IMG/VR virus record: IMGVR_UViG_3300028549_003029
Location: 91 to 64,090 of that record
Direction: 5' to 3' (one strand)
DNA length: 64,000 nt
Origin: a virus
Each line of letters opens with the position of its first letter. The first letter of the stretch is position 1. The notes under the pieces were generated by a model. It searched no databases. It was not told where the DNA came from and worked only from the letters and a program-made list of their open reading frames with translations. This document shows, one piece after another, positions 3,840-31,002 of the stretch. Both the position numbers and the translations under genes were made by a program.

Positions 3840-4061
3840 TTAACTGCGTTTTCGCTTAACATTCTTCCTTCTCAACACCCAATACTTTACTGTTAAATCG
3901 TTTGGCGCTTTGTATACCTCTGGAATTGCACCACTCAGAAAAAACTCGCCCTTTTTTGGTAGCCCGAAGCGATCCACAACATACTCAATACCTTTGGCGT
4001 CTTTGTACGTCTTATACATGCTCAAGCTCTCCAGGGTCAATAGTTCCGATGGTATCAACAA
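3840..4061 (-). CDS. hypothetical protein
   Basis: 73-aa ORF (likely start MYKTY) in a co-oriented run. Confidence 0.45.
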   Translation of the reverse strand: MLIPSELLTLESLSMYKTYKDAKGIEYVVDRFGLPKKGEFFLSGAIPEVYKAPNDLTVKYWVLRRKNVKRKRS

Positions 4062-4248
4062 GCACCATCATACCTCTTACATCTACAACAGTGCCTTCTG
4101 TGTCACTGTTTCTGCAAAGTACTTTATCACCAACTTTAAATGTTGTAAAAATTGCATGTTTATCGATAGTGTCTCTTATCAATCTCTCTGCAAATTCTAC
4201 GGAGTTGGCCTTCATATAAACAACAGAGACGCTATCTAAAACTGCCAT
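4012..4248 (-). CDS. hypothetical protein (SH3/KOW-like C-terminus)
   Basis: FKVGDKV...GTVVDV pattern. Confidence 0.5.
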   Translation of the reverse strand: MAVLDSVSVVYMKANSVEFAERLIRDTIDKHAIFTTFKVGDKVLCRNSDTEGTVVDVRGMMVLVDTIGTIDPGELEHV

Positions 4249-8603: not shown

Positions 8604-8771
8604 TTAGTAATTAAACCTGTTCCCAACACTGTTAAAAAACTTGTATTCAGGAACTTTTGGAACCGGTTCAAAAACCTTTGCAACGACACGTTTATTGAAC
8701 GCATCTTCAACCAAAACTTTATCGATGTCAACTCCGTACTTCTCGTACAAAGAAACTATCTCTTTTCTCAT
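8604..8771 (-). CDS. small hypothetical protein (55 aa, not in ORF track)
   Basis: GGAGG SD then MRKEIVSLYEKYGVDIDKVLVEDAFNKRVVAKVFEPVPKVPEYKFFNSVGNRFNY*. Confidence 0.6.
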   Translation of the reverse strand: MRKEIVSLYEKYGVDIDKVLVEDAFNKRVVAKVFEPVPKVPEYKFFNSVGNRFNY

Positions 8772-8850
8772 TATGAACAACCTCCTTTACGGGTAAAAAA
8801 ATAGCGCCACACGATTAAGTGTGACGCCGTTTGAGTGTGGTGATGTTGCC

Positions 8851-9400: not shown

Positions 9401-9460
9401 GAAATTCGAGAAACATAACGCTTATGCAGATTGTATTTTAAGCCATACTTGGAGGTAAAT

Positions 9461-12400
9461 ATGCAAGATAAGATCTTAGCGCAACTCGCCCAGATGAGCT
9501 ACGACAAGCGTCAGAACACAATGATGAACGCTACAGTGTCAACCACTGTTAATCATGTTTTAAATAATGTTGAAAATGATAAAATTAAGCTTGTTGCAGA
9601 TAATGTAGAAGTAGTTAAAAAATACGAGCATGACGATCTGGCTAAGCAAAAAGACATCGCAGACAAGCAGCAAGTTTTTTCTGACGAAATCAGAGCTGAC
9701 CTGAAGCTTATCAGCAAAGAGACCGGTGAAGTTATTGACACTGCACTCGGCGTTAAGATCGCAGAAATACCGAAGGTGACCGATCGAATGACTTACTTGA
9801 TCAAAGGTAACGAATACCAGACAAGTATGCAGCCTCGACTCAAGTCCGGAGTTTATACAAAGACTCAAAGCAATGGTGAGATCAGTTCTTATTTCAACGT
9901 TGATAAAACCGTTGACTTTGACCGCGGTTTCAATAACGACTTCAGAATCGACTTTGAACCAGAGTCGAAGATTTTCAGCATGAGATACGGCGGGAAGAAG
10001 ATACCCCTTCTGAGCACGTTAAAAGCTCTAGGCGTATCATCGCGTGACCTTGAGGCTAAATGGGGCAAGGAAGTGCTAGATGAGAACGAGAGAATGTACG
10101 GACGCCATGAAGAGAGAGATATCAAAAAGCTTTACAGCGCGGTGTTCGGGAAAGAGTCTGGTAAAGACGAAAAGCTTGCCGACCTTTCAGCCGCAATAAA
10201 AGAGCGACTTTTTGACACGAGACTCAATCCAGAGGTAACATCGATCACTCTTGGAAAAGCTTATGACAAAGTGAACGGAAGCGCAATACTCGATGCGTCA
10301 AAGAAAATCATCGATATCAACCGTGGAGTTGAAGATGAAGATGACCGCGAGTCTCTCATGTTCAAGAACATCGTAGGGATCGAAACTCACATCAAAGAGC
10401 GACTCGTAAAAAGCTCGAAACAAATCGCGAACAATATCGCTCACAAGCTCGGGAAAACCGGGAAGATCAACTCTTCCATCTCATCGCAGATGTTCCGTCC
10501 TTACATCGAGGGAGTGATCACAGGATCTCAGATCTCCAACCCGCCAAACCAGACGAACATCATGTCGATCATTGGTGAATCAACGAAAATCACTCCTATG
10601 GGAGAAGGCGGTATTGGATCGGCAAACGCGATTACAGATAGTATGCGTGTTCTGTCGAACACCGAAGCCGGATTTGTCGATCCTTTGCACACACCTGAAG
10701 GTGGAGGTATCGGTATTTCTAAGCACCTTTCCAATGGTACTGTCGTTGTAGAAGGTACACCTTACAGTACTTTTATCAACCGCAAGAGCGGGAAGAAAGA
10801 GATGAAATCTCCTTCTGAACTGTACAGTAAGTACCTTTCATTTCCGGACCAGTTTGACTCTAATGGTAAGCCGAAGAATAAAAAAGTGTCTGTAATCCAT
10901 AAGGGTAAAATGACCACTGTTGACGCTTCCGAAGTTGACTATGTGATCCCTTCATCTGAGTTCATGTTTGATACCGCTGCTGCGTCCATTCCTTTCCTTG
11001 ACTCAATCCAAGGTAACCGTGGTCTTACCGCTTCGAAAATGCAGGAGCAGTCAGTGTCTCTTACGAACAGAGAGAAACCGCTGTTCAACATTATGGCAGG
11101 GAACGGGAAGTCGCTTTCAAAAGCTCTCGGATCTTCGATCGCGGTTCCAAAGTCTCCTGTTGATGGAGTCGTAGAGAACTTGACTGACGAGCTTATGGTG
11201 ATAAAAGGAAAAGACGGTAAGAGTCATGAGATTCAACTGTACCACAACTTCTCACTTAACTCAGAGTCGTTCCTGAACAATGACCCGCTCGTTAAGATTG
11301 GTGACAAAGTTGAAAAGGGCCAGATTCTTGCAGACAATAACTTCACGAAAGATGGCCACGTTGCCCTCGGAGCAAACCTTCGAGTTGCTTACATGCCTTA
11401 CCGCGGATGGAACTATGAAGACTCAGCAGTGATAAGTGAGTCTGGAGCTAAAAAGCTTCAGTCGCAGCACATGTATGACTTCAAAGCAAGAAGAAGCTCT
11501 GGTGGTACTTTCGACAAGAAGAAATTTGCCGCTTACTATCCTGAAGAGACTTCTTCAAAGACAATGGCAAAGCTCGATGCAAACGGAATTATCAAAGTGG
11601 GCCAAAAGGTTGAACACGGAGATATTCTCATTGCTCACATGGAACCAGTAGCTCCAACTGCTGATGATATCGCTGTAGGAAGACTTGATAAGCAGCTCAA
11701 AAGAGACATGGCTAACAACTCAGTAAAATGGGATAAAGGCCACGTTGGAATTGTTACAAGCGTGACTAAGCACGGTAACAATGTCGTTGTGAACGTGAAG
11801 ACAAAAGAGGATATGAAGAAGGCTGACAAGATCGCTGGACTCCACGGTAACAAGCACATCATCTCGGAAATTCTTCCTGATGACCAGATGCCTTTTGACC
11901 CGGTCACCGGTAAGCATATTGAGCTTACAATGTCACCGATCGGTGTGTCTAACCGAATCAACACTTCTCAGCTCCTTGAGAATGCTGCTGGTAAAATTGC
12001 CGAGAAAACCGGTAAACAGTATGAAATTCACAACTTCGAAGACACAGATAACTCAAGAAAAGTTATGAGAGCTCTAAAGGAGAACGGTCTTTCAGATAAA
12101 GACAAGTTGATCAACCCAGAGACTGGGAAGCCTTTCAAGAGTGAGATCGCTAATGGCGTGTCTCACATCCTCAAGCTTGAGCACACTATCGATCACAAGT
12201 TCTCATCTCGATACAGAGGTGGGTACGACTCAAATGAACAGGCATCAAGCGGAGGGCATCATGGTGGCAAAAACGTCGGAAGAATGGAATCAGCGGCTCT
12301 CCTTGCCCGAGGTGCAACTGCAAACCTTGAGGAGATATTCGGAGTTAAAGGACAGCGGAATGATGAGTATTGGCGAAACATGGAAATGGGCATACCTACC

Positions 12401-15400
12401 CCTACTCCTAAGAGCCCTGCTTTCGTATGGGATAAATTCCTTGCGATGTCGAAAGGAGCGGGGGTAAATATCGAGCGTAAAGGCAAGTCTTTCACGATGA
12501 AGCCTATGACCGATGAAGATATCATGAAGATCTCTGCCGGCGAGCTTACTCGTCCAACTGAGACTTATCGTAAAAAGAACTTTGAGCCTGTAAATGGTGG
12601 ATTGTTCGATCCGAAAATTGTAGGAGGTATGAGAGGTGACAAGTATTCTCACATCCAACTTCCTGAGAGTATTCTTAATCCGATAACAGCGAAAGCAGTC
12701 GCCGGGATTCTTGAGATGCCAGAGAGCAGACTCGAAGCAATCGCTGAAGGGACTCAGTTCATAAGCAAGAAGACCGGTGAAAATGTCTCAAAAGGACACG
12801 CTGATGGGTACACTGCAAACGAAGCTATTAAGAGCTTGTTGAAAAACATAGATCTTGATAAGGAGTATGAACAGGCTAAAAAACAGTCTGAGTTAACCCA
12901 TAGCACTGCTGATCTCAATAAGCTCAACCGTAAGATGAATTACATCAAAGGGCTTAAAAAGAACGGTCTTGAAGCAAAAGATCTTATGATAAGCAAAGTA
13001 CTTGTCACTCCTTCAAAGTTCAGACCAATGATCCAGATGGGAGCGGATGGTACCGTTATCATCGCTGATGAGAATGAACTGTACCAGCAGGTTGCTCAGA
13101 CTTCTAAAGCTCTCGAAGACCATAAAGATGCTATGAAGGATCTACCTAAAAGCGTTCTTGGCATTACAGCAGCTGAAGGACGTGGACAACTGTACAAAGA
13201 CGTTCGCGCTCTTCAAGGGTTGTCTGAACCAACTGCATACCTTCACAAGATCAAAAAGAAAAAAGGGTTCCTTGCTCAGATTGACGGTGGAGACAAGCAG
13301 ACAAAAGAAGGGTACTACCAGAACAAGGTGATGGAGCGCCGTCAAGACTTGGTTGGTCGTTCTACCATTACTCTTAATCCATCTCTTGGTGGTGACCAGA
13401 TGGGTATTCCAGAAGAAATGGCGACAGACATTTTCCGTCCGTTTATCATGCAGAAACTCGTATCTTGGGGGTACAAGCCTCTTGATGCGAAAAAACAAGT
13501 TGACGATGACAGCAGTGTGTTTAAAAAGGCTCGCGAAGTTGTCGCTGGAGAGAGACTCATAATTGCAAACAGAGCACCTTCTCTTCACAAGTGGAACATG
13601 ACAGCTTTCCATCCTGTTCTTACAAAAGGAAAGTCAATTGAGACTCCAGCTGTTGTGATCTCAAAGAACTTTGATGGTGACTTTGATGGTGACACATTTC
13701 AGATCCACGTCCCTGTAAGCAAGAAAGCCCTTGAAGAAGCCTACACAATGCTTCCGTCTGTAAACATGCTTAAGACCGGGTACGGATCTGTTCTTAACAT
13801 GCCTGACATGGACATGATTGCAGGAGCGTACCTTGCATCAAAAGGTGAGGGTAGCGACGGGAAAGTTCACGAGTTCAAAACTCTTGAAGAGATGCAGAAG
13901 GCTATAAAAAGCCATAAGATCGATCACTCTGACATGGTAAAAATAGGCAAGAGAACCGACAATGCAATCATGCATGATATCAACAGTACTCTTCCTGAAA
14001 AATTCCATAAATGGGGCCATGATCTCAACAAGAAAAATGTTGAGAAGTGGATTGCTGATGTCAGTGAGAACGGACCAAAAGGAACAGGTTTAGACCTTGC
14101 AGACAAGATTAAGGAAGTCGGTAATGATTACATTACGAAATTCGGACTCACACTTGGCGTCTCAGACACGCTTGTTGACACTGAAAAGAGAGACGATATT
14201 GTCAAAAAAGCATGGGAGAAAGCAAAAACAGAAGGTGTGGTATCTGCATTCTCATGGGCAAAAGAAGAAGCTAAAAATGAACTTGCTTCTAAGCACGGGA
14301 TCAAGTCGCAAGTTGGGATTCCACTTATCTCAGGAGCAGGTAAAGGCATTGGAAACACGTCTGACATCGCAATGTTCCCAGGAATCCTTGCCGACGCAAA
14401 TGACAATCCTATCGAAATCCCGATCCTTCGTTCTTATTCTGAAGGTCTCGATACTTTTGGTTACTGGGCGGCTGCTCACGGAGCACGAGGTGGTAACATC
14501 AAAAAATCTGTCCAATCGTTCAAGCCAGGGTACCTGACAAAGAAGATGATCAACACAATGTACGAAACTCGTATCGCGAGCGAAGCTCCGATGGATACTG
14601 AAGGTGTTGAGTACAAAGTGTCAGATAAGAAAGGTATTGTAAACAGATACCTTGCTCAGGATGCAGTTGATAAAAAAGGCAAAGTTGTTGCGAAGAGAAA
14701 CGATCTGATCGATGCTGCTCTTATCAATAAATTCCACATTACAGGAACGAAGAAGATCTATGTTCAGTCACCTTTAACAGACCCTACTCCTGGAGAAGGG
14801 TTCTCAGCTTGGTCGTATGGAGTTTCTGACAACAATCGTAGAATGAACCGCGGTGACCATGTCGGGGTAATATCTGCACACACAATCACGCAGCCATCTC
14901 TTAACCTTGCGATGAAATCGTTCCACTCAGGTGGTAAGATAGATGCAAAAAGCGCGAAGAGAAAGGTGAATACCGGTTCTGCGTTTGACGAGATGGACAG
15001 AGTATTCAGCTTTGTTCAAACACCTCCAGACAAAGCAACTTTGGCAAAAATTGACGGTGTTGTCGAAAGTGTGAACCGGTCCGGAGTTGGCGGATTTGAT
15101 GTCGTGATAAGTGGCACCAAACACTACGTTTCTAAAAATGTTGACACCGAAGTAAAAGTTGGTGACAAAGTTAAGAAAGGCCAGCAGATATCAACTGGCA
15201 CTCCTAACCCTCACGAAGTTCTAAGTCTTCGCGGGATGAAAGAGACCCAGAAGTATCTCGTTGAAAAGCTTAGTGATATCAACGAAGGGAACCTCGATAA
15301 GAGAAACATCGAGACGATTGTAAGAAGTATCACGAATACAACAAGAATTACCGATCCAGGTAAAAGTGATTATGTTAAAGGTGACACGGTAGCTCTTACA

Positions 15401-15628
15401 ACTGTTGAGCATCTCAATAAGAATGGGCTTGGGATTAAACACTCTCCATTCCTTGTTGCGATGGGTATCGGTGGCAAGCCGGCGTTGTCAAAAGACTTCA
15501 TTGGAAGACTTGGCCACAACAGACTTAAAGACGTGTTCCAAGACGGTTCTGTGATGGGTTACGAAAGCAAAATTGATAGAGACTCTGGCAACCCTATGAC
15601 AAGACTTGTCAGCGGCGTTTACGAATAA
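9461..15628 (+). CDS. rpoBC: DNA-directed RNA polymerase, fused beta-beta' single chain
   Basis: beta motifs HTPEGGGIG, GNRGLTASKMQEQ, GWNYEDS, DKIAGLHGNK, GGKNVGRME; beta' motifs RQDLVGRS, NRAPSLH, FDGDFDGD, GYLTKKM, LAMKSFHSGG; GGAGG SD before ATG 9461. Confidence 0.97.
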   Translation: MQDKILAQLAQMSYDKRQNTMMNATVSTTVNHVLNNVENDKIKLVADNVEVVKKYEHDDLAKQKDIADKQQVFSDEIRADLKLISKETGEVIDTALGVKIAEIPKVTDRMTYLIKGNEYQTSMQPRLKSGVYTKTQSNGEISSYFNVDKTVDFDRGFNNDFRIDFEPESKIFSMRYGGKKIPLLSTLKALGVSSRDLEAKWGKEVLDENERMYGRHEERDIKKLYSAVFGKESGKDEKLADLSAAIKERLFDTRLNPEVTSITLGKAYDKVNGSAILDASKKIIDINRGVEDEDDRESLMFKNIVGIETHIKERLVKSSKQIANNIAHKLGKTGKINSSISSQMFRPYIEGVITGSQISNPPNQTNIMSIIGESTKITPMGEGGIGSANAITDSMRVLSNTEAGFVDPLHTPEGGGIGISKHLSNGTVVVEGTPYSTFINRKSGKKEMKSPSELYSKYLSFPDQFDSNGKPKNKKVSVIHKGKMTTVDASEVDYVIPSSEFMFDTAAASIPFLDSIQGNRGLTASKMQEQSVSLTNREKPLFNIMAGNGKSLSKALGSSIAVPKSPVDGVVENLTDELMVIKGKDGKSHEIQLYHNFSLNSESFLNNDPLVKIGDKVEKGQILADNNFTKDGHVALGANLRVAYMPYRGWNYEDSAVISESGAKKLQSQHMYDFKARRSSGGTFDKKKFAAYYPEETSSKTMAKLDANGIIKVGQKVEHGDILIAHMEPVAPTADDIAVGRLDKQLKRDMANNSVKWDKGHVGIVTSVTKHGNNVVVNVKTKEDMKKADKIAGLHGNKHIISEILPDDQMPFDPVTGKHIELTMSPIGVSNRINTSQLLENAAGKIAEKTGKQYEIHNFEDTDNSRKVMRALKENGLSDKDKLINPETGKPFKSEIANGVSHILKLEHTIDHKFSSRYRGGYDSNEQASSGGHHGGKNVGRMESAALLARGATANLEEIFGVKGQRNDEYWRNMEMGIPTPTPKSPAFVWDKFLAMSKGAGVNIERKGKSFTMKPMTDEDIMKISAGELTRPTETYRKKNFEPVNGGLFDPKIVGGMRGDKYSHIQLPESILNPITAKAVAGILEMPESRLEAIAEGTQFISKKTGENVSKGHADGYTANEAIKSLLKNIDLDKEYEQAKKQSELTHSTADLNKLNRKMNYIKGLKKNGLEAKDLMISKVLVTPSKFRPMIQMGADGTVIIADENELYQQVAQTSKALEDHKDAMKDLPKSVLGITAAEGRGQLYKDVRALQGLSEPTAYLHKIKKKKGFLAQIDGGDKQTKEGYYQNKVMERRQDLVGRSTITLNPSLGGDQMGIPEEMATDIFRPFIMQKLVSWGYKPLDAKKQVDDDSSVFKKAREVVAGERLIIANRAPSLHKWNMTAFHPVLTKGKSIETPAVVISKNFDGDFDGDTFQIHVPVSKKALEEAYTMLPSVNMLKTGYGSVLNMPDMDMIAGAYLASKGEGSDGKVHEFKTLEEMQKAIKSHKIDHSDMVKIGKRTDNAIMHDINSTLPEKFHKWGHDLNKKNVEKWIADVSENGPKGTGLDLADKIKEVGNDYITKFGLTLGVSDTLVDTEKRDDIVKKAWEKAKTEGVVSAFSWAKEEAKNELASKHGIKSQVGIPLISGAGKGIGNTSDIAMFPGILADANDNPIEIPILRSYSEGLDTFGYWAAAHGARGGNIKKSVQSFKPGYLTKKMINTMYETRIASEAPMDTEGVEYKVSDKKGIVNRYLAQDAVDKKGKVVAKRNDLIDAALINKFHITGTKKIYVQSPLTDPTPGEGFSAWSYGVSDNNRRMNRGDHVGVISAHTITQPSLNLAMKSFHSGGKIDAKSAKRKVNTGSAFDEMDRVFSFVQTPPDKATLAKIDGVVESVNRSGVGGFDVVISGTKHYVSKNVDTEVKVGDKVKKGQQISTGTPNPHEVLSLRGMKETQKYLVEKLSDINEGNLDKRNIETIVRSITNTTRITDPGKSDYVKGDTVALTTVEHLNKNGLGIKHSPFLVAMGIGGKPALSKDFIGRLGHNRLKDVFQDGSVMGYESKIDRDSGNPMTRLVSGVYE

Positions 15629-23739: not shown

Positions 23740-24345
23740 GATTTTAAGCAGTCTTCCGAGGTGGGCTTTTATAAGTCCGCCTCTTTCAGATCTAACACTA
23801 TCAATTTCGAATATCGCATATACCCCTTTACCTTTCCCGGCTTGAATCTTGACTATCTTCGGATCCCTCATCCATCGTTTAGACCAATACGCCTTGTCAG
23901 CAGTAGCTACAGACCCTTCAAGTCCACACACCGCAGACTTGACGAAGCGTTTATTGGCAGGGATTATTATCTTGTAAGTGTTTTCTATGTAGCAGTCTAT
24001 GAGCCCTGCAACATCGTTAAGCCTACCATCAACTTGAAAACGACCTGAAATTAACCGAGTCCTTTCCCCGACATGCACAATCCTGAACCATTTGAAATTA
24101 CGATTGTTGCTCATTATATCGCTTGTTGCCGCAAAATTGTCCCACCCGCCATGCTGAATCATATTCCTAACGGAATCACTTGCCGGAATGAAGAATTCCC
24201 CCAAAATATTATTGGAGAAGCTCTCAAAAATATTTCTGGCAGACCTAGGAGTTGAAGCGTATACTTGGGTCGCATATGCAACGGCATCAGCAGCATCTCT
24301 CCAGTTATGATTCAAAAGTGTACCCGTCACTTCTGATGTAATCAT
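23728..24345 (-). CDS. hypothetical protein
   Basis: 205-aa ORF. Confidence 0.6.
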   Translation of the reverse strand: MITSEVTGTLLNHNWRDAADAVAYATQVYASTPRSARNIFESFSNNILGEFFIPASDSVRNMIQHGGWDNFAATSDIMSNNRNFKWFRIVHVGERTRLISGRFQVDGRLNDVAGLIDCYIENTYKIIIPANKRFVKSAVCGLEGSVATADKAYWSKRWMRDPKIVKIQAGKGKGVYAIFEIDSVRSERGGLIKAHLGRLLKIGED

Positions 24346-24673
24346 CTGTGTGCTTGTCTCTCATGAGAGCATACACGCTTACTGAAGATCCTGAGAACCA
24401 TTTAAACTCTGTACCAACAAACGCAGGGCAGAACGTCTCGGAGAAGTCATCTTCGCTTATTGGACCATCTTCGCCGTGCATTTCCCAAAGCTTGTCTTTT
24501 ACAATTATTGAATCGACATTGCCAAGTATCTCGGCGTGCTTCATGATATCAACAGCGCGGTTCCTTATCACACTTTCGTCAAACCTGAACTCATAGTGGT
24601 CAGGAAGATCGTGATACTCGTTACTTGAAAACCCCGGTCTAATCTCCATTTTCAATCCACCCTTCAATTGCAT
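24305..24673 (-). CDS. hypothetical protein (likely start MEIRPG ~24649)
   Basis: acidic 122-aa ORF. Confidence 0.55.
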   Translation of the reverse strand: MQLKGGLKMEIRPGFSSNEYHDLPDHYEFRFDESVIRNRAVDIMKHAEILGNVDSIIVKDKLWEMHGEDGPISEDDFSETFCPAFVGTEFKWFSGSSVSVYALMRDKHTDDYIRSDGYTFES

Positions 24674-25176: not shown

Positions 25177-25208
25177 AAAAAAATAAAAGCCCGGTTTTTA
25201 CACCGGGC
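25177..25208 (-). terminator. intrinsic terminator closing the RT operon
   Basis: GCCCGGU/ACCGGGC stem followed by UUUUAUUUUUUU on the minus strand. Confidence 0.8.
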
Positions 25209-25213
25209 TAATT

Positions 25214-25296
25214 CTGCAAACATACCTGGCGTGACCAGGGCAGTAACTCTCCAATTCGAAACGAATTGGTTACGCTTGTTGAGCGCTTCTTTGCAG
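25214..25296 (-). ncRNA. candidate retron msr/msd-like four-stem RNA
   Basis: closing inverted repeat CUGCAAA/UUUGCAG enclosing three hairpins, with an unpaired G right after the 5' arm; lies between the RT-linked ORFs and the terminator. Confidence 0.6.
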
Positions 25297-25300
25297 TAGA

Positions 25301-25483
25301 CTACTTCTTTTTCGCACCTCGGTACTTGCGTAAAATTCTCTCGTCCTCTTTTGCTTTCCATTTCTCGTGGATTTTGTCGAACAGGTCGATTGCACCAGAG
25401 ATCATGTCGGCAACCATAGGAATAATTTCAAGAGAGTTTGTCGCGACCTTGCGAAAACCATCCATAGTCGGCTTCTTCGGCAT
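25301..25483 (-). CDS. 60-aa amphipathic/basic peptide overlapping the RT 3' end
   Basis: GGAGG SD inside the RT ORF; IIPMVADMISGAIDLFDKI helix and basic tail. Confidence 0.6.
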   Translation of the reverse strand: MPKKPTMDGFRKVATNSLEIIPMVADMISGAIDLFDKIHEKWKAKEDERILRKYRGAKKK

Positions 25484-26555
25484 AAGTATCCTCCATATTA
25501 ACGTTCTTAAGCCCTGGCTTGGCTGTCGCTAACATGTCCATATACTTCTTACCTTTGACTTTATCGATACTCATCAAGTAACTGCACCAGCCACGAAGTT
25601 TCATAAGTCTTTCAACTGTCAATTTCTCAGGGTGTTTCACTACAGCGTGGTGAACCATTGCCCTGAACATTTTCATTTGGTACTTTGAAACTGATAGCTT
25701 ATCATTCACAACAACCCCACAAACTTCAAGTCTTGCACCGCGGTGTCTGAACCTTACCTTCTTTGGATTCACTTCAAACCCGTATGCCCAAAGCATTGAT
25801 TTAGCCTTTGGAACAACGATGCTTGCAAGCTCTGAAGAAGACATTCCATACACCTCATTTTCATCGGTCACACCTCCATGAGAGAACGAAAGGTCGTCTG
25901 CATATCTGGTGTAATTGATTTCTCTTTCTTTACACCATTTCGCAACGCGATCATCAAATCCTCTCATGATGATATTTGCAAGAATCGGAGATGTCGGGAA
26001 CCCTTGTGGAGTGTAGCCCTTGTACGTTACAAGTTTCACAATCTTTGAAAGGAGCGGATCATAATCGGATTTTTCGCAGAAGTCAGGAATCAACATGGCC
26101 TTGATCTCTGGACAGACTCCGATATATTCACCGGACTGATTCTTGTACAGGGATGGACTACATTTACCAGCCTTCATACTACTGTGCATCGTACATGCTT
26201 TGCACACCTTCTTGTTTCCAAGGAGACAGTTTTTCAGGTGGTCTTCATTGATCGAATCAAAGAAGTCCTTCACATCGATCGTCCCAAGAGATCTTGACCG
26301 AAGGTGAGGCTTTGCATTTGTTACGATGCTTCTGTTGATCTTGAACCCGTGAGCAGCATCGTGAGTGTTGTACTCCAAAAGGAAGAATGAGATCGATTTT
26401 AGAATTGTCTTGTATTCACCAACAGGCTCAACAATCTTTCTAAATCCACCTCTCTTCTTAGGGATTTTTATCTCCCTGACCCACTTGCTCTGATCCGAGA
26501 TTATCCGACCCGCTAGATCCCAGTCGATGTTCAGAAGCTTTTCCTTCGTAATCAT
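25428..26555 (-). CDS. retron-type reverse transcriptase
   Basis: IPKKRGGFRKI, AHGF, NAKPH (retron region X NAxxH), DVKDFFDSI, PQGFPTSP, YTRYADDLSFS, EVCGVVV (VTG-like region Y). Confidence 0.93.
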   Translation of the reverse strand: MITKEKLLNIDWDLAGRIISDQSKWVREIKIPKKRGGFRKIVEPVGEYKTILKSISFFLLEYNTHDAAHGFKINRSIVTNAKPHLRSRSLGTIDVKDFFDSINEDHLKNCLLGNKKVCKACTMHSSMKAGKCSPSLYKNQSGEYIGVCPEIKAMLIPDFCEKSDYDPLLSKIVKLVTYKGYTPQGFPTSPILANIIMRGFDDRVAKWCKEREINYTRYADDLSFSHGGVTDENEVYGMSSSELASIVVPKAKSMLWAYGFEVNPKKVRFRHRGARLEVCGVVVNDKLSVSKYQMKMFRAMVHHAVVKHPEKLTVERLMKLRGWCSYLMSIDKVKGKKYMDMLATAKPGLKNVNMEDTYAEEADYGWFSQGRDKLS

Positions 26556-26614
26556 TTACAGCACTCCCTCTCTCTGATCCTTGTTTAACCATCTCTTCAA
26601 CTGGGTCACATTCA

Positions 26615-27523
26615 TCAATCGCATACTTCTCCATCGATTCTCTCCAAGTTCATGATTATTGCCGACGTTACTTCAAATTCGTCAGCCTCATCGATCTTGC
26701 CTCCTGCAATACCTTTGTGGCCTCCGACACCTTTTTCTCCGATTACTGACCGCAGAACATCAACAGCGTCAACCTTGCTTTCAATCCACGGGCTAACGCT
26801 GAGTCTGACAGACAAGCTGTTACCTTTTCCGTAAGTGTACCGAATGCAATATCGCATATTTCTGTAGATGTAGAACTCAGCGTATCTTGCGATCGGAGCC
26901 TTGTCATGTTGGAAAATTACACCAACACCATTAATGATCGTAATGTCGTTCATCGCTGACTTCGATGCATCGATATCATGATTAATGATCTTATCGATAT
27001 CAACACCTGAAACAACTTTTTCGACATCAAGATCATTGATTACAAGGCTGCCGACGATTGCGTTCATAAAATGTTTGTTTACACCAGCATTCTGAGCAAC
27101 CCATATCCGCAGGATGTTTATCGGATCTCTTGATTCAAACGGTTCAGAAGGAGACTTGTACGTTGCAGTGTCAACATCTCCGATTGCTCTGATAAGGTCC
27201 TCGCTTATTACGCGGCCTTTCACAAGAGCATAAGACGCAAGGATCTGAAAGCAGCTTCTTGCATCAACGTTGAACAGGTCACCTTCGACTGGAACCGAGT
27301 TGGACTTGTGGTGGTCAAACCAAAGATCAACACCAGGAGCTCTGTCAATATCAATCGCAACAACTGTTGCGCCTTTGATCTTTTTGGTGAGCTTTGTATA
27401 GACCTGTCTGTCTGCAGAACGAACAGGCTGCAAGTTGAACTTACAGCCTGGATTTGATAATACAAATAGAGCGGCGCTCATGGCGCCGTCTACGTCGTTG
27501 TGGTAAAATACTTGATAGAACAA
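26615..27523 (-). CDS. DHH/DHHA1-family phosphoesterase
   Basis: YHNDVDG, AIDID, FDHH, C-terminal GGHKGIAGG; TTG start with GGAGGT SD. Confidence 0.88.
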   Translation of the reverse strand: MFYQVFYHNDVDGAMSAALFVLSNPGCKFNLQPVRSADRQVYTKLTKKIKGATVVAIDIDRAPGVDLWFDHHKSNSVPVEGDLFNVDARSCFQILASYALVKGRVISEDLIRAIGDVDTATYKSPSEPFESRDPINILRIWVAQNAGVNKHFMNAIVGSLVINDLDVEKVVSGVDIDKIINHDIDASKSAMNDITIINGVGVIFQHDKAPIARYAEFYIYRNMRYCIRYTYGKGNSLSVRLSVSPWIESKVDAVDVLRSVIGEKGVGGHKGIAGGKIDEADEFEVTSAIIMNLERIDGEVCD

Positions 27524-27588
27524 AATACCTCCAATAAGTTAAATGCTACCTTTCATAGTAGTTGTTCCTTAATTGGAGCTAGAATAAC

Positions 27589-28293
27589 TTAGCTTCCGCC
27601 GTATTCGTCGAACGTAGAGTTCTTGATAGCACTGTTGAACGCTACACCTCCACCGATCGCTCCGGTGACTCCGACGCCAACAACAGCATTCCCGAACTTT
27701 TTCTTTCGGCTATCAAATTTCGCCTTCTTTGCAGCAAGAGCGGCGTCTCTCTCGGCGGCAGCAGCAGATATTTTCGCAGCCTCTCTTTGAGCAGCAGTGC
27801 TGTAACCTTTTACACCAAGAGTCCCGCCTACTTCATGAAGGAGATTGTTAATGCCGCCAGTGATGCGATCATCTTTTACGGCAGCTTCTGCCGACCCTTT
27901 TACTTTATCAACTTCGTTGTAAAAGTTTTTAGCTTTTCCGAAAAGAGAGTCTCTACTGCCTTGGAGCTTTTTAAGATTGTTGTCGTGCCGAGCATATTGT
28001 TCAGTACCTTTTTCAAAAGCGTCTCTTGCTTGAGCGCGTTGTCCAATAAGCTCGTCGTAACGAGCGTTTCTCTTCTTGTTAGCACCCCAAATGCTTTTCA
28101 CGCCCTCAATCAACTCTTCTCCGGCACTTGTTTGCTTGATGTCATCGAATGTAGATTTTACGGCGTCTTTCAGATGGGCAGCAGTCTGTGTTCCGCCCAC
28201 GGCTTTACCGACTGCGTCGAACCCCTTTTTTGTGTATTCGCTAACAAGCTGGCCCCAGCCCGCATTCTTCTCTATCATGTGTCCACCTTCCAT
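27589..28293 (-). CDS. KxA-motif virion-type protein on the minus strand
   Basis: IEKNAG near the N-terminus, Gly-rich hydrophobic C-terminal segment; divergent from 28327. Confidence 0.65.
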   Translation of the reverse strand: MEGGHMIEKNAGWGQLVSEYTKKGFDAVGKAVGGTQTAAHLKDAVKSTFDDIKQTSAGEELIEGVKSIWGANKKRNARYDELIGQRAQARDAFEKGTEQYARHDNNLKKLQGSRDSLFGKAKNFYNEVDKVKGSAEAAVKDDRITGGINNLLHEVGGTLGVKGYSTAAQREAAKISAAAAERDAALAAKKAKFDSRKKKFGNAVVGVGVTGAIGGGVAFNSAIKNSTFDEYGGS

Positions 28294-29323: not shown

Positions 29324-29572
29324 ATGTATCATTCGATTGCCCTTGAGAAAATCGCTTCGAGCGGATCGGCAATGCTTCTTGCAGCTGTAGAAAAAGACCA
29401 CAGTCTTATATCAAGAGCTAAAAAAATGGCTTCAGCTTCTGTAATGCGAAGATTGAAGCAGGATGGCGCCGGTGACATGGTTAACGCTGGGAAGCGATTG
29501 ACTGACATAATGGACACAAGAAACTCCATCAACCGCCTTTCAGCAAACATTTTAAATGGAACTATTAAATAG
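29324..29572 (+). CDS. small KxA-motif protein
   Basis: MYHSIALEKIASSG. Confidence 0.6.
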   Translation: MYHSIALEKIASSGSAMLLAAVEKDHSLISRAKKMASASVMRRLKQDGAGDMVNAGKRLTDIMDTRNSINRLSANILNGTIK

Positions 29573-29580
29573 GAGTTGTT

Positions 29581-30327
29581 ATGAATCAGTATTACGAGGC
29601 GGCGTACATTAACGCTCTTGAGAAAATTGCTGAAGATGGCGAAGGGTTCAACCCTATGCCACTTGTAGGAGTTGGTCTTGCTGGCGCAGGTGGATACGCC
29701 GCTTACAAGCACTTTAAGCCAGGTGCTGCTGTACCAGTTGCTGAAGTTGCTAAAGCTGCGCCTAGAATCTCAGGAAAAGCTGGAGCAATAGCCGCAGGAG
29801 TTACCGGAGTTGCAGGAATCGGAGCTATTGCTGCAAGAGCGATTATGAAGTCGAGAGCTGCATCTAAAGCAGCTACAAGAGGAACTGCAAGACAGGACAT
29901 AATGGCTACCGCAAGAAGCGGAGCACAGGCTCCATCTGTTGTGAAGTCATTTGACGTAGCTGAACAGGTTAGAACAGGTACAAGAGACAAGATCATGTCA
30001 ATGGCTAAGGCAACACTTGGCCAGCCTGGTGTCGTTAGATCATTTGACAAAGCTCCAGTATCACAAAAGGCTGTTGAAATTGTAAAAGCAAGATCAAATG
30101 CAACTGCTCAAGCAGCTGCTGCAAACAAGTCTGTCGATTACGCTAAGTACCTTCGCGGACTCCACGCTGATGGCGCTGTTGAACCTGCAACCCTTAAGAG
30201 ATTTAGCGATGAAGCTATCGATAATGTTCGTGGATACAATGCAGCTCGAATGAGTTCTGCAAACGTAAAAGAAAGATTCCGTGGAGCAGACGCTGTACAG
30301 AGATTTGAAAATAAGATGGGAGCTTAA
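29581..30327 (+). CDS. MNQYY-leader Ala/Gly-rich probable virion protein
   Basis: MNQYYEAAYINALEKIAED followed by GxxxG hydrophobic segments. Confidence 0.75.
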   Translation: MNQYYEAAYINALEKIAEDGEGFNPMPLVGVGLAGAGGYAAYKHFKPGAAVPVAEVAKAAPRISGKAGAIAAGVTGVAGIGAIAARAIMKSRAASKAATRGTARQDIMATARSGAQAPSVVKSFDVAEQVRTGTRDKIMSMAKATLGQPGVVRSFDKAPVSQKAVEIVKARSNATAQAAAANKSVDYAKYLRGLHADGAVEPATLKRFSDEAIDNVRGYNAARMSSANVKERFRGADAVQRFENKMGA

Positions 30328-30328
30328 A

Positions 30329-30730
30329 ATGAATCAGTATTACGAAGCTGCGTATATCAATACGCTTGAAAAAATTGCATCTGAAGGTGGAAACAACACC
30401 GCAGTAGGTCTTGGTCTTACAGGTCTTGGCCTTGCAGGCGCAGGTGCAGGAGTTTACGCTTACAATCGCAACAAAGCTGCTACAGTAGCCCCTGAAATCG
30501 TTCAGGAAGTTGCTGAAGCTATCAAAGCGAACAAAATGGGTACCGCTGGTAAAGCCGGACTCGCTGCTGCTGGTCTTGCCGGCCTTGCAGGACTTTGGTA
30601 TGCCGGAGTAAAATCAATGGGCGCAAAAGGGATGGCTGAAGCTGCTAAGATGGATGGGATTTCAAAAATCATCAAAAAAGTAGAATCTGACTTTATGTCG
30701 AAAACTCACTCGAACATTAAGCCGCATTAA
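30329..30730 (+). CDS. MNQYY-leader Ala/Gly-rich probable virion protein
   Basis: MNQYYEAAYINTLEKIASEG; two hydrophobic segments; start at ATG 30329. Confidence 0.75.
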   Translation: MNQYYEAAYINTLEKIASEGGNNTAVGLGLTGLGLAGAGAGVYAYNRNKAATVAPEIVQEVAEAIKANKMGTAGKAGLAAAGLAGLAGLWYAGVKSMGAKGMAEAAKMDGISKIIKKVESDFMSKTHSNIKPH

Positions 30731-30737
30731 TCAAAAA

Positions 30738-30763
30738 CTCCCGTCAGAGTTTTCTGGCGGGAG
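30738..30763. terminator. intergenic hairpin
   Basis: ctcccgtcag/ctggcgggag stem. Confidence 0.55.
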
Positions 30764-30780
30764 ATATATTCGGAGGAACA

Positions 30781-31002
30781 ATGAATCAGTTTTATGTTGC
30801 TGCATACGAAAGAACTATCGAAAAGATTGCTTCTGGAGAGATGACTAAAGAAGCCGGACTTCCTGAGATTACTGCAAAAGTACTTGCAAGCGTAAGATCT
30901 CATGCGAACAAGGTTACAAGCCCAGCAAAAGAAAAGAGCCTTATTGAGATGATCGCAAGATCAGGAGATTTCATGGGGACTCTAGGTAAAAGAGGACACT
31001 AA
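30781..31002 (+). CDS. small MNQFY-leader protein
   Basis: MNQFYVAAYERTIEKIASGEMTKEAG; GGAGG SD. Confidence 0.7.
   Translation: MNQFYVAAYERTIEKIASGEMTKEAGLPEITAKVLASVRSHANKVTSPAKEKSLIEMIARSGDFMGTLGKRGH

Follow-up and report, generated by a model that had tools for sequence, protein, structure and literature searches.

A phage-encoded module of a retron-clade reverse transcriptase, a DHH phosphoesterase and a downstream structured RNA

Retrons are understood as bacterial anti-phage systems of a toxin-antitoxin-like kind, and their non-coding RNA (ncRNA) is usually encoded upstream of the reverse transcriptase (RT). What does a retron-like RT do in the genome of a phage, where it is encoded next to a DHH phosphoesterase and followed by a structured RNA? 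This question is raised by a minus-strand run of genes in a stretch of viral DNA of 64,000 nucleotides (IMG/VR record IMGVR_UViG_3300028549_003029, positions 91 to 64,090), to which we refer as the window. Bacterial retrons are composed of an RT, an msr-msd ncRNA and an effector, and have been classified into types I-XIII (Mestre et al. 2020, PMC7736814).

The ORFs, the 85-nt four-helix RNA and the terminator that a sequence-only reading had placed in the window were all confirmed at their positions (Table 1). Its list of genes was correct for the most part and lacked one member, a 58-aa ORF that belongs to the module. The KxA-type protein, which it had counted as a component, does not belong there: a phmmer search against 23 family loci found homologues only in the window sequence and a near-identical twin genome, and in relatives the same slot is filled by unrelated ORFs (clusters C4 and C6). 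The absence of an evident internal terminator holds for canonical terminators, the only one being at 25188-25209, but weak terminator-like hairpins are present within the DHH ORF. As in retrons, the accessory genes share one operon with the RT, and the transcript is predicted to carry, in this order, the DHH (with its tail peptide), the RT, RNase HI where present, the small peptide, the structured RNA and the terminator.

Table 1. Features of the module and elements of its RNA in the window.
Feature	Position	Strand	Remarks
KxA-rich protein, 234 aa	27589-28293	-	First gene of the minus-strand run; content of the slot varies among relatives
Predicted DHH/DHHA1 phosphoesterase, 302 aa	26615-27523	-	TTG start; stand-alone NrnA/PggH-like type
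58-aa ORF	26458-26634	-	Begins MEKYAIDECDPVEE; overlaps the end of the DHH gene and the start of the RT gene
Retron-clade reverse transcriptase, 375 aa	25428-26555	-	YADD, NAxxH, VCG, ~45-aa four-Cys insertion
60-aa amphipathic peptide gene	25301-25483	-	Overlaps the 3' end of the RT gene
Structured ncRNA, 85 nt, miniature form	25213-25297	-	Fold, synteny with the RNA of relatives, short motifs
RNA element a1	25296-25290	-	Pairs with a2
RNA, unpaired G	25289 (or 25286)	-	
RNA hairpin 1	25286-25272	-	
RNA hairpin 2	25269-25251	-	Conserved GUUUCG loop
RNA hairpin 3	25239-25225	-	CCUGGUCAC motif
RNA element a2	25220-25214	-	Pairs with a1
Intrinsic terminator	25177-25209	-	Operon end; 8-bp GC-rich stem (25209-25188), loop, T-run

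Both sequence and fold place the RT in the retron clade. The window protein matches the Pfam RVT_1 domain at 1.9e-18 and reaches 1e-39 to 4e-59 with the retron RT models of PADLOC, and all 25 RTs of the family match the PADLOC retron models (1e-47 to 1e-66) with no single type preferred. When the family profile was compared with the PDB, the retron RTs Ec86 (1e-42), Ec83 (2e-39) and Kva2, Ec67 and Ec78 (1e-33 to 1e-35) scored far better than group II RTs (1e-14 to 1e-17) and DRT2 (1e-10), and every one of the best 18 Foldseek matches is a retron RT. Thus the PADLOC, PDB profile and Foldseek comparisons all favour the retron clade, to which the RT had been assigned from its motifs. It shares YADD and NAxxH with the solved retrons (Ec86, Ec83, Ec67/Eco2, Ec78/Eco7 and Eco8). 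The NAxxH mark of region X, rightly recognized in the sequence-only reading, is found as TNAKPH in the window RT and aligns to NAYKH of Ec67; across the family, N80 and H84 are invariant and A81 is nearly so (at least 90%). The region Y motif, described earlier as VTG-like, is aligned to VTG of Ec67 and keeps the V and the G of the VxG frame, but Thr is replaced and the motif reads VCG, with a Cys that is invariant in the family. The fingers also differ from those of retron RTs by a family-specific insertion of ~45 aa that carries four invariant cysteines (C118, C121, C132 and C148). Because all retron-type HMMs score about equally, the RT fits no defined retron type. The DHH, the RNase H and the Cys insertion of this module are each absent from 128 other retron-type RT loci. 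Two other kinds of RT element were rejected. A diversity-generating retroelement would have a template/variable repeat pair, and the locus yields only short chance-level matches (including one 31-nt arm, I4, which is 71% complementary and lies inside the RT gene); an RT of this kind also ranks far below retron RTs. The group II intron was dismissed on the low scores of group II RTs and on the lack of any Rfam intron match in the window.

The 302-aa protein appears, on the basis of its motifs, family profile and structure model, to be a catalytically intact DHH/DHHA1 phosphoesterase with PggH, PAP phosphatase and NrnA as nearest relatives. The window protein reaches 3e-4 at best against Pfam DHHA1, which is under the cut-off. 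The family alignment (A4) shows conservation of the motifs HNDVDG, DID, WFDHH, DVDT and GGH, the family profile matches PggH (7d62) over its full length at 1.3e-12, and an AF2 model (pLDDT 89) has PggH, PAP phosphatase, RecJ cores and NrnA as its best Foldseek matches. The two-domain fold, all catalytic motifs and the length of ~300 aa are shared with stand-alone DHH/DHHA1 enzymes (PggH 7d62, PAP phosphatase 8a8k, NrnA and Pde2), whereas sequence identity to them is only 13-17%, the gene sits in an RT operon, and in most lineages a C-terminal tail with the motif MEKYAVDxxDPVE is fused to the enzyme (alignment A4). In the window and in loci L004 and L006 this tail is encoded apart from the enzyme, in a frame that has an ATG and an SD-like GGAG/GAGG of its own (cluster C16); the 58-aa ORF of the window is homologous to the DHH tail of other lineages.

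The pairing of DHH with the RT is not a peculiarity of the window. A search for co-occurrence in related phages, which had been proposed from the sequence, shows that in all 23 family loci the DHH gene immediately precedes the RT gene. The DHH partner is genuine. The view that a DHH enzyme is not among the known retron effectors also holds for the retron classification (PMC7736814), which lists neither the nanoRNase-like DHH/DHHA1 enzyme of this module nor its two other partners, RNase HI and the small peptide. Homologues of the DHH protein escaped a word-based protein search and were recovered by an exhaustive profile search. In cellular TIM-PGK-DHH-RNaseH operons, where no RT is encoded, a DHH gene of the same subfamily overlaps the RNase H gene; the subfamily also occurs in a replication cluster of a phage, again with no RT, and in the fusion proteins found by profile search the partner domains of DHH are MazG-like and PGK, and not RTs. 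From these contexts the DHH looks like a processing enzyme, not an effector. Since in cells it pairs with RNase H where there is no RT, the two are more likely to be cDNA-maturation enzymes than toxins.

In all loci inspected, a structured RNA, ~160-260 nt long in the relatives with the large form, is encoded after the peptide gene and just before the terminator, which in the relatives as well lies ~10-25 nt past a2. The RNA is thus the last element of the operon before the terminator, downstream of RT, RNase H and peptide, and not upstream as is usual in retrons. No Rfam family matched it, whether the gathering threshold or permissive filters were applied. The large forms consist of a1/a2-like flanking repeats, two covarying 5' hairpins, a hypervariable long hairpin, a conserved 3' domain and an invariant CCCCCGACCCC box, which occurs once per genome. 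The flanking repeats form covarying duplexes of at least 9 bp. Cognate a1/a2 duplexes have a mean of -13.0 kcal/mol versus -4.6 for non-cognate ones, and the cognate partner is best in 16 of 20 loci (p = 6e-13), the outer a1 sequences in this comparison being ~30% identical. With fixed anchors, positions 1-9 are paired in 73-100% (11-15 of 15 sequences) with at most five pair types per position; over all 12 positions pairing amounts to 70%, as compared to 43-49% when the repeats are slid. The G directly after a1 is nearly invariant (column 16 of alignment A2), and another conserved G precedes a2. In hairpins 1 and 2, 92% of cells are paired and 13 of 14 pairs show compensatory changes, a result that 0 of 500 shuffles equalled; these two hairpins are also the only ones that RNAalifold recovered from a MAFFT alignment of the full-length RNAs. 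Of the two helices P6 and P7 in the 3' domain, only one can form at a time, and each has only moderate support. A covariance model built from the large forms (R1) recovers non-seed members and, in ~75 unrelated loci, gives no match below E 0.5. The branch that has diverged most (L025, L027, L202 and L223) escaped it; there, related motifs are visible by eye only.

The downstream RNA noticed in the window is real and conserved. It is a previously undescribed structured RNA with a retron-like a1/a2 architecture: a1/a2-type inverted repeats, small 5' hairpins and, in the large forms, a long variable hairpin are all shared with retron ncRNAs, and the conserved G at the junction is a candidate for the 2'-OH priming site. 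DRT2 and DRT9 likewise combine an RT with a dedicated structured ncRNA, but the RT of this module is much nearer to retron RTs, and its a1/a2 architecture is retron-like. A coding template of the DRT2 kind was rejected, as a stop-free concatemer frame is absent in 21/22 RNAs.

The window itself carries a miniature form, in which a 7-bp closing stem and three hairpins fold at -30.5 kcal/mol (z = -3.8, 0 of 200 shuffles as good) and the long msd-like hairpin is absent. Its position is syntenic with that of the large RNA of relatives. Model R1 did not detect it with default filters, and with filters off matched it at hairpin 2 only (11.4 bits, E 0.27 in 5 kb). All three miniature forms retain the closing stem, which is weak in the two other than that of the window. 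Because the window RNA is short and weakly matched by the large-form model, its probable homology to the large form rests on synteny and short motifs. The sequencing runs that hold the window sequence are DNA metagenomes only (microbial mat and aquatic), with no RNA runs among them.

The module belongs to a clade that is defined by its terminase. The clade comprises uncultured phages of 150-210 kb, and the module is found at one fixed place in their genomes. All 23 family loci contain DHH and RT, and 20 of them RNase H; in the terminase census, DHH and RT occur at the same position in 21/21 assessable genomes and RNase H in 20/21, and no outgroup phage in that census has module genes. The DHH, RT and RNase H genes are inherited along with the packaging genes. 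Near and distant DNA and protein searches of cultured phages returned no close relative, with terminase identity of ~28% at most. The module is a vertically inherited core feature of the whole clade, not a sporadic island. A phage-encoded retron-like unit, as first described, is what the locus holds; the idea of a module rearranged in one phage is not sustained.

RNase HI, too, belongs to the ancestral module. The window lineage keeps this gene elsewhere, ~50 kb from the module, and for that reason it was out of sight of the sequence-only reading; the complete genomes (164-208 kb) encode exactly one RNase H, which is that of the module. The candidate RNase H remnant p122 gave no more than a marginal match of 34 aa and was set aside. 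A small peptide follows the RT or RNase H in nearly all loci, with a family core of F-N-x-V-V-D-A-x-x-x-F-x-K-x-I-F-P, hydrophobicity under the trans-membrane range and a net charge from -6 to +15. The 60-aa peptide gene of the window is real and a divergent member of this conserved family. No toxin domain or effector was found at the module in PADLOC or Pfam.

Retrons do occur in temperate phages (Ec67, Ec73), and the module could be a conventional retron borne by a phage, that is, an abortive-infection or superinfection exclusion system in which RT-msDNA restrains an effector (the DHH or the amphipathic peptide) until a competing phage triggers it. The retron-clade RT, the a1/a2 architecture of the RNA and the amphipathic core of the peptide would suit such a system, as would the pairing of RT and effector that retron systems normally show (PMC7736814). 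We nevertheless consider it unlikely. Unlike swappable defence cargo, the module occupies a fixed syntenic place in every assessable genome and its divergence parallels that of the terminase, making it a clade core and not a defence-island gene. The DHH belongs to a subfamily that in cells is a housekeeping-type partner of RNase H. The lack of an evident toxin sets the module apart from retrons, and the peptide is less hydrophobic than membrane spans are and not conserved in charge.

PggH-type enzymes hydrolyse dinucleotides derived from signalling, therefore a counter-signalling role for the DHH is conceivable, and phages do encode phosphodiesterases against signalling defences. The DHH would then degrade immune signalling nucleotides of the host (linear or cyclic oligonucleotides, pGpG-like molecules or pAp), with the RT and RNA making decoy DNA or working separately. 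The nearest solved relatives, which include the pGpG-specific PggH as well as GdpP and Pde2 types, agree with this proposal. What makes it quite improbable is the company the enzyme keeps: throughout the clade it is strictly linked to RT and RNase H by overlapping genes, its cellular homologues are linked to RNase H and not to signalling genes, and the L025 lineage keeps RT and RNase H next to a degenerate DHH without catalytic motifs. It is very unlikely, finally, that the RNA is a mere 3'-UTR element for stability, processing or termination and that the RT uses another template or none, like some defence RTs, for although the RNA directly precedes the terminator, at a position unlike that of canonical retron ncRNAs, and a CGACC motif is common to terminator loops and the RNA box, covarying repeats of at least 9 bp, junction Gs, a hypervariable long hairpin and two 5' hairpins are retron hallmarks beyond the needs of a terminator, the box is single-copy in each genome, and the RT is of the retron clade and not of the UG/Abi or DRT type.

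We favour, with a probability of roughly 0.6, the explanation that the window holds one copy of a clade-wide operon that acts as a self-contained retron-like cDNA factory and provides a core phage function. In this factory, the RT would bind the 5' (msr-like) hairpins of the RNA, prime at the G beside the a1/a2 duplex in the manner of retrons and use the 3' part of the RNA as template for a small single-stranded DNA (ssDNA). RNase HI would strip the copied RNA, and the NrnA/PggH-like DHH would clear or trim the leftover RNA oligonucleotides, yielding mature ssDNA independently of host nucleases. In the window lineage, the template would have shrunk to 85 nt, with a predicted cDNA of ~30 nt. 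Of the purposes proposed from the sequence, the one most in line with the evidence is the making and processing of a short RNA-DNA.

The least certain part of this explanation is the use to which the DNA is put. No assessable genome of the clade lacks the module, and no toxin can be recognised in it; we therefore think that the DNA may serve the phage itself, by taking part in replication or packaging or by acting as a decoy against host defences in general, and not as an abortive-infection switch. More tentatively, these phages might use a retron-like RT for their own reproduction, with the ssDNA being copied from the 3' end of the operon's own transcript and matured by a pair of RNase HI and nanoRNase captured from a cellular RNA-removal cassette. 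The phage life cycle would then require this DNA, for instance to prime replication or packaging or to act there as a cofactor, or as a general decoy for host sensors. On retrons with DHH, nanoRNase or NrnA and on phage-encoded retrons with RNase H, the openly accessible literature yielded no description of this module. If true, the proposal would make the module the first retron-type element whose core role is pro-viral and not one of host defence.

A retron-clade RT and a retron-style RNA thus form a vertically inherited core module of these phages, with partners of a nucleic-acid-processing kind and with no evident toxin. If the DNA is made as predicted, the locus would bring to light a structured RNA family and a functional pairing of DHH and RNase H that are both new, the latter also found in cells. 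It would provide a compact, host-independent ssDNA cassette (RT, RNase H, nanoRNase and a template of ~200 nt or 85 nt) relevant to retron-based genome editing, and it would mean that phages have domesticated retron chemistry for themselves.

The window derives from an IMG/VR record of 64.6 kb (CheckV completeness, 36%), and its gene content includes a terminase, helicases and a 2065-aa ORF, a giant single-chain RNAP-like protein whose PHROG matches are beta-type subunits of phage RNA polymerase. All minus-strand ORFs proposed by the sequence-only reading were recovered at unchanged positions.

Features of the window
Feature	Position	Strand	Basis or remark
2065-aa RNAP-like ORF	9431-15628	plus	PHROG matches
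122-aa ORF	24305-24673	minus	marginal RNase H match
Canonical intrinsic terminator	25188-25209		3' of RNA
Structured RNA	25213-25297	minus	folding
Small ORF, 60 aa	25301-25483	minus	ORF call
RT, 375 aa	25428-26555	minus	ORF call
Tail ORF, separate small gene	26458-26634		own start, other frame than DHH
DHH phosphoesterase, 302 aa	26615-27523	minus	ORF call
KxA-rich protein	27589-28293	minus	ORF call
Tandem paralogous genes	29581-30830, also 29324-29572	plus	shared start MNQ(Y/F)Y.AAY...EKIA

Gene order is identical in the 23 loci compared. The terminase and a ~340-aa gene lie on one strand; the module lies next, divergently, as a run of variable small genes, DHH, RT, RNase HI, small peptide and structured RNA, and beyond it, on the first strand again, is a gene of ~730 aa, or 626 aa in the window. 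DHH and RT are each encoded in 23/23 loci and RNase HI in 20/23. A terminase-based census of clade loci with enough flanking sequence (n=21) gave DHH plus RT in 21/21 and RNase H in 20/21. None of the outgroup phages (~30% terminase identity) carries the module's DHH, RT or RNase H, and no close relative was found among cultured phages. The window's tandem genes are flanked by p330 and the terminase gene, a place where large-form relatives lack them; the longer paralogues (29581, 30329) have a Gly-rich hydrophobic stretch after the shared N-terminal start.

The RT matches Pfam RVT_1 and every retron RT model in PADLOC (1e-39 to 4e-59). We scored the RT family profile against solved structures in the PDB and obtained 1e-42 for Ec86, 2e-39 for Ec83 and 1e-33 to 1e-35 for Kva2, Ec67 and Ec78, with group II RTs at 1e-14 to 1e-17 and DRT2 at 1e-10. 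The best 18 PDB matches of the AF2 model (pLDDT 85) are all retron RTs (18/18), and together these comparisons bear out the retron affiliation first proposed from motifs. The 25 members of the family alignment each score about equally well against every retron type, and the family is therefore a lineage of its own among retron RTs. Across this alignment YADD is invariant, NAxxH and CGVVVN motifs are present, and a ~45-aa insertion holds four invariant cysteines. When aligned with the Ec67 RT, NAxxH falls on NAxxH, so this motif of the sequence-only reading stands; its "VTG-like" motif is VCG at the position of the Ec67 VTG. At E<=1e-10 the family numbers 1637 proteins, many of them encoded on contigs 100-208 kb long. 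Neither a module-type DHH or RNase H nor the Cys insertion was found at any of 128 other retron-type RT loci.

Searched singly, the 302-aa protein gives a sub-threshold DHHA1 match. Its family alignment conserves all DHH/DHHA1 motifs, the family profile matches PggH (7d62) over its full length (1.3e-12), and its structural model (pLDDT 89) most resembles PggH, PAP phosphatase, RecJ cores and NrnA. The proposed DHH/DHHA1 identity is thus upheld by motifs, profile and fold, and the protein is predicted to be a stand-alone nanoRNase-type phosphoesterase. In most lineages it ends in a C-terminal tail, MEKYAVD..DPVE; in the window and the two relatives closest to it, this tail is a separate small gene in another frame and with its own start. 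One locus (L025:5881-6957, = L208) encodes a DHH homolog without the DHH/DHHA1 catalytic motifs and keeps RT and RNase H.

An exhaustive profile search for the DHH family yielded 962 representatives. Mid-range matches on cellular MAG contigs (L218, L219, L220, L221) lie in conserved TIM-PGK-DHH-RNase H operons whose DHH and RNase H genes overlap, a pairing that is apparently undescribed; a PGK-DHH fusion protein also exists (P0242). Another phage-like contig carries DHH and RNase H within a replication cluster without RT, and on a more divergent contig DHH is followed by RT, RNase H and a small ORF, in that order. Because the two enzymes are paired in cellular genomes and on a phage-like contig without RT, they look like a pre-existing pair, which would remove RNA from hybrids and clear fragments, to which a retron-type RT and RNA were joined. 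Such a pairing speaks for DHH as a processing enzyme rather than a toxin effector; a counter-signalling module centred on the DHH protein is judged less likely.

RNase HI is missing from the module in 3/23 loci: that of the window and those of the two relatives nearest to it. Complete genomes (164-208 kb) encode exactly one RNase H each, that of the module. The near-identical twin genome of the window (152.7 kb) encodes an RNase HI ~50 kb from the RT locus (G001:C1:124682-125086), which is 34% identical to the module type and matches Pfam RNase_H at 5.7e-44, versus ~1e-28 for the relatives' module-type enzyme; relocation or independent acquisition could explain it. The window's 122-aa ORF marginally matches (5.8 bits) the C-terminal 34 residues of the profile for the module's RNase H and could be a remnant or a chance match. 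The small peptide proved to be a real, conserved gene. With hydrophobicity below the transmembrane range and no conserved charge, it lends no support to a membrane-toxin role.

The relatives' RNA is ~160-260 nt long (163-262 nt in loci measured), and in every locus inspected it sits 3' of the peptide gene and is followed by a terminator. Read from its 5' end, the a1 arm and an almost invariant G lead into hairpins 1 and 2, the latter with a GUUUCG loop. A long hairpin whose sequence is hypervariable follows, separated by a conserved UCAAU from another long hairpin; the 3' domain then carries the invariant box CCCCCGACCCC (once per genome), and a conserved G and the a2 arm come last. Outer arm sequences are only ~30% identical between loci. 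Cognate a1/a2 duplexes average -13.0 kcal/mol versus -4.6 for non-cognate ones, and the cognate partner is best in 16/20 loci (p = 6e-13). With anchors fixed from unfitted alignments, positions 1-9 are paired in 73-100% of sequences (11-15/15), a single position showing as many as five pair types, and sliding the register lowers pairing from 70% (all 12 positions counted) to 43-49%. Hairpins 1 and 2 have 92% of cells paired and compensatory changes in 13/14 pairs (0/500 shuffles as good). An RNA placed between a gene and its terminator could be a mere 3'-UTR element; beside this pairing, that reading is less likely.

A covariance model of the 5' domain recovers members outside its seed and finds no match in ~75 unrelated loci, cellular DHH-RNase H loci or outgroup phages; no Rfam family matches the RNA. 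Two mutually exclusive helices in the 3' domain, each with moderate support, may reflect a switch. CGACC, the core of box CCCCCGACCCC, often recurs in the loop of the following terminator hairpin (L007, L011-L014, L016, L017, L019, L020, L022, L026, L093). Directly 3' of intrinsic terminators, including just past the RNA terminator in L007-L026, lies TTTTTTAGCTAT, found 1-6 times per complete genome (G002-G005), against 0 occurrences of the reversed control; it probably serves these phages as a terminator/promoter junction signal. The covariance model does not match the module's most divergent branches (L027 ~8650-8830, L223 ~3960-4150), where a hairpin with a GUUUC(G) loop can be seen by eye, together with a CCCCGA-like box and AATTAGCCG before the terminator; their order may be rearranged.

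The RNA of the window is a miniature, in whose fold a closing stem of 7 bp encloses three hairpins (-30.5 kcal/mol; z = -3.8; 0/200 shuffles as good). This fold and the canonical terminator confirm the multi-stem RNA and terminator proposed downstream. The miniature retains the closing stem and hairpins 1 and 2, the latter including its loop, as well as a short hairpin bearing the CCUGGUCAC motif of the large form's second long hairpin; the hypervariable hairpin and box CCCCCGACCCC are missing. The large-form model matches only hairpin 2, weakly, so homology of this RNA rests on position and motifs.

The module shares RT clade and RNA logic with retrons and differs, or is uncertain, in RNA position, VTG, effector and msDNA itself; its putative mode of working is that of a retron. 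The retron classification (PMC7736814) lists none of its partners, nor were they found in the searchable literature. From the established parts, their linkage and the RNA architecture, we infer that the RT would recognise hairpins 1 and 2, priming would occur at the G adjoining the a1/a2 duplex, and the RT would copy the RNA's 3' part, after which RNase HI and DHH would strip the RNA, leaving ssDNA. A conventional abortive-infection retron is less likely: no toxin was found, and this, with the module's fixed position across the clade, suggests that the module serves the phage itself.
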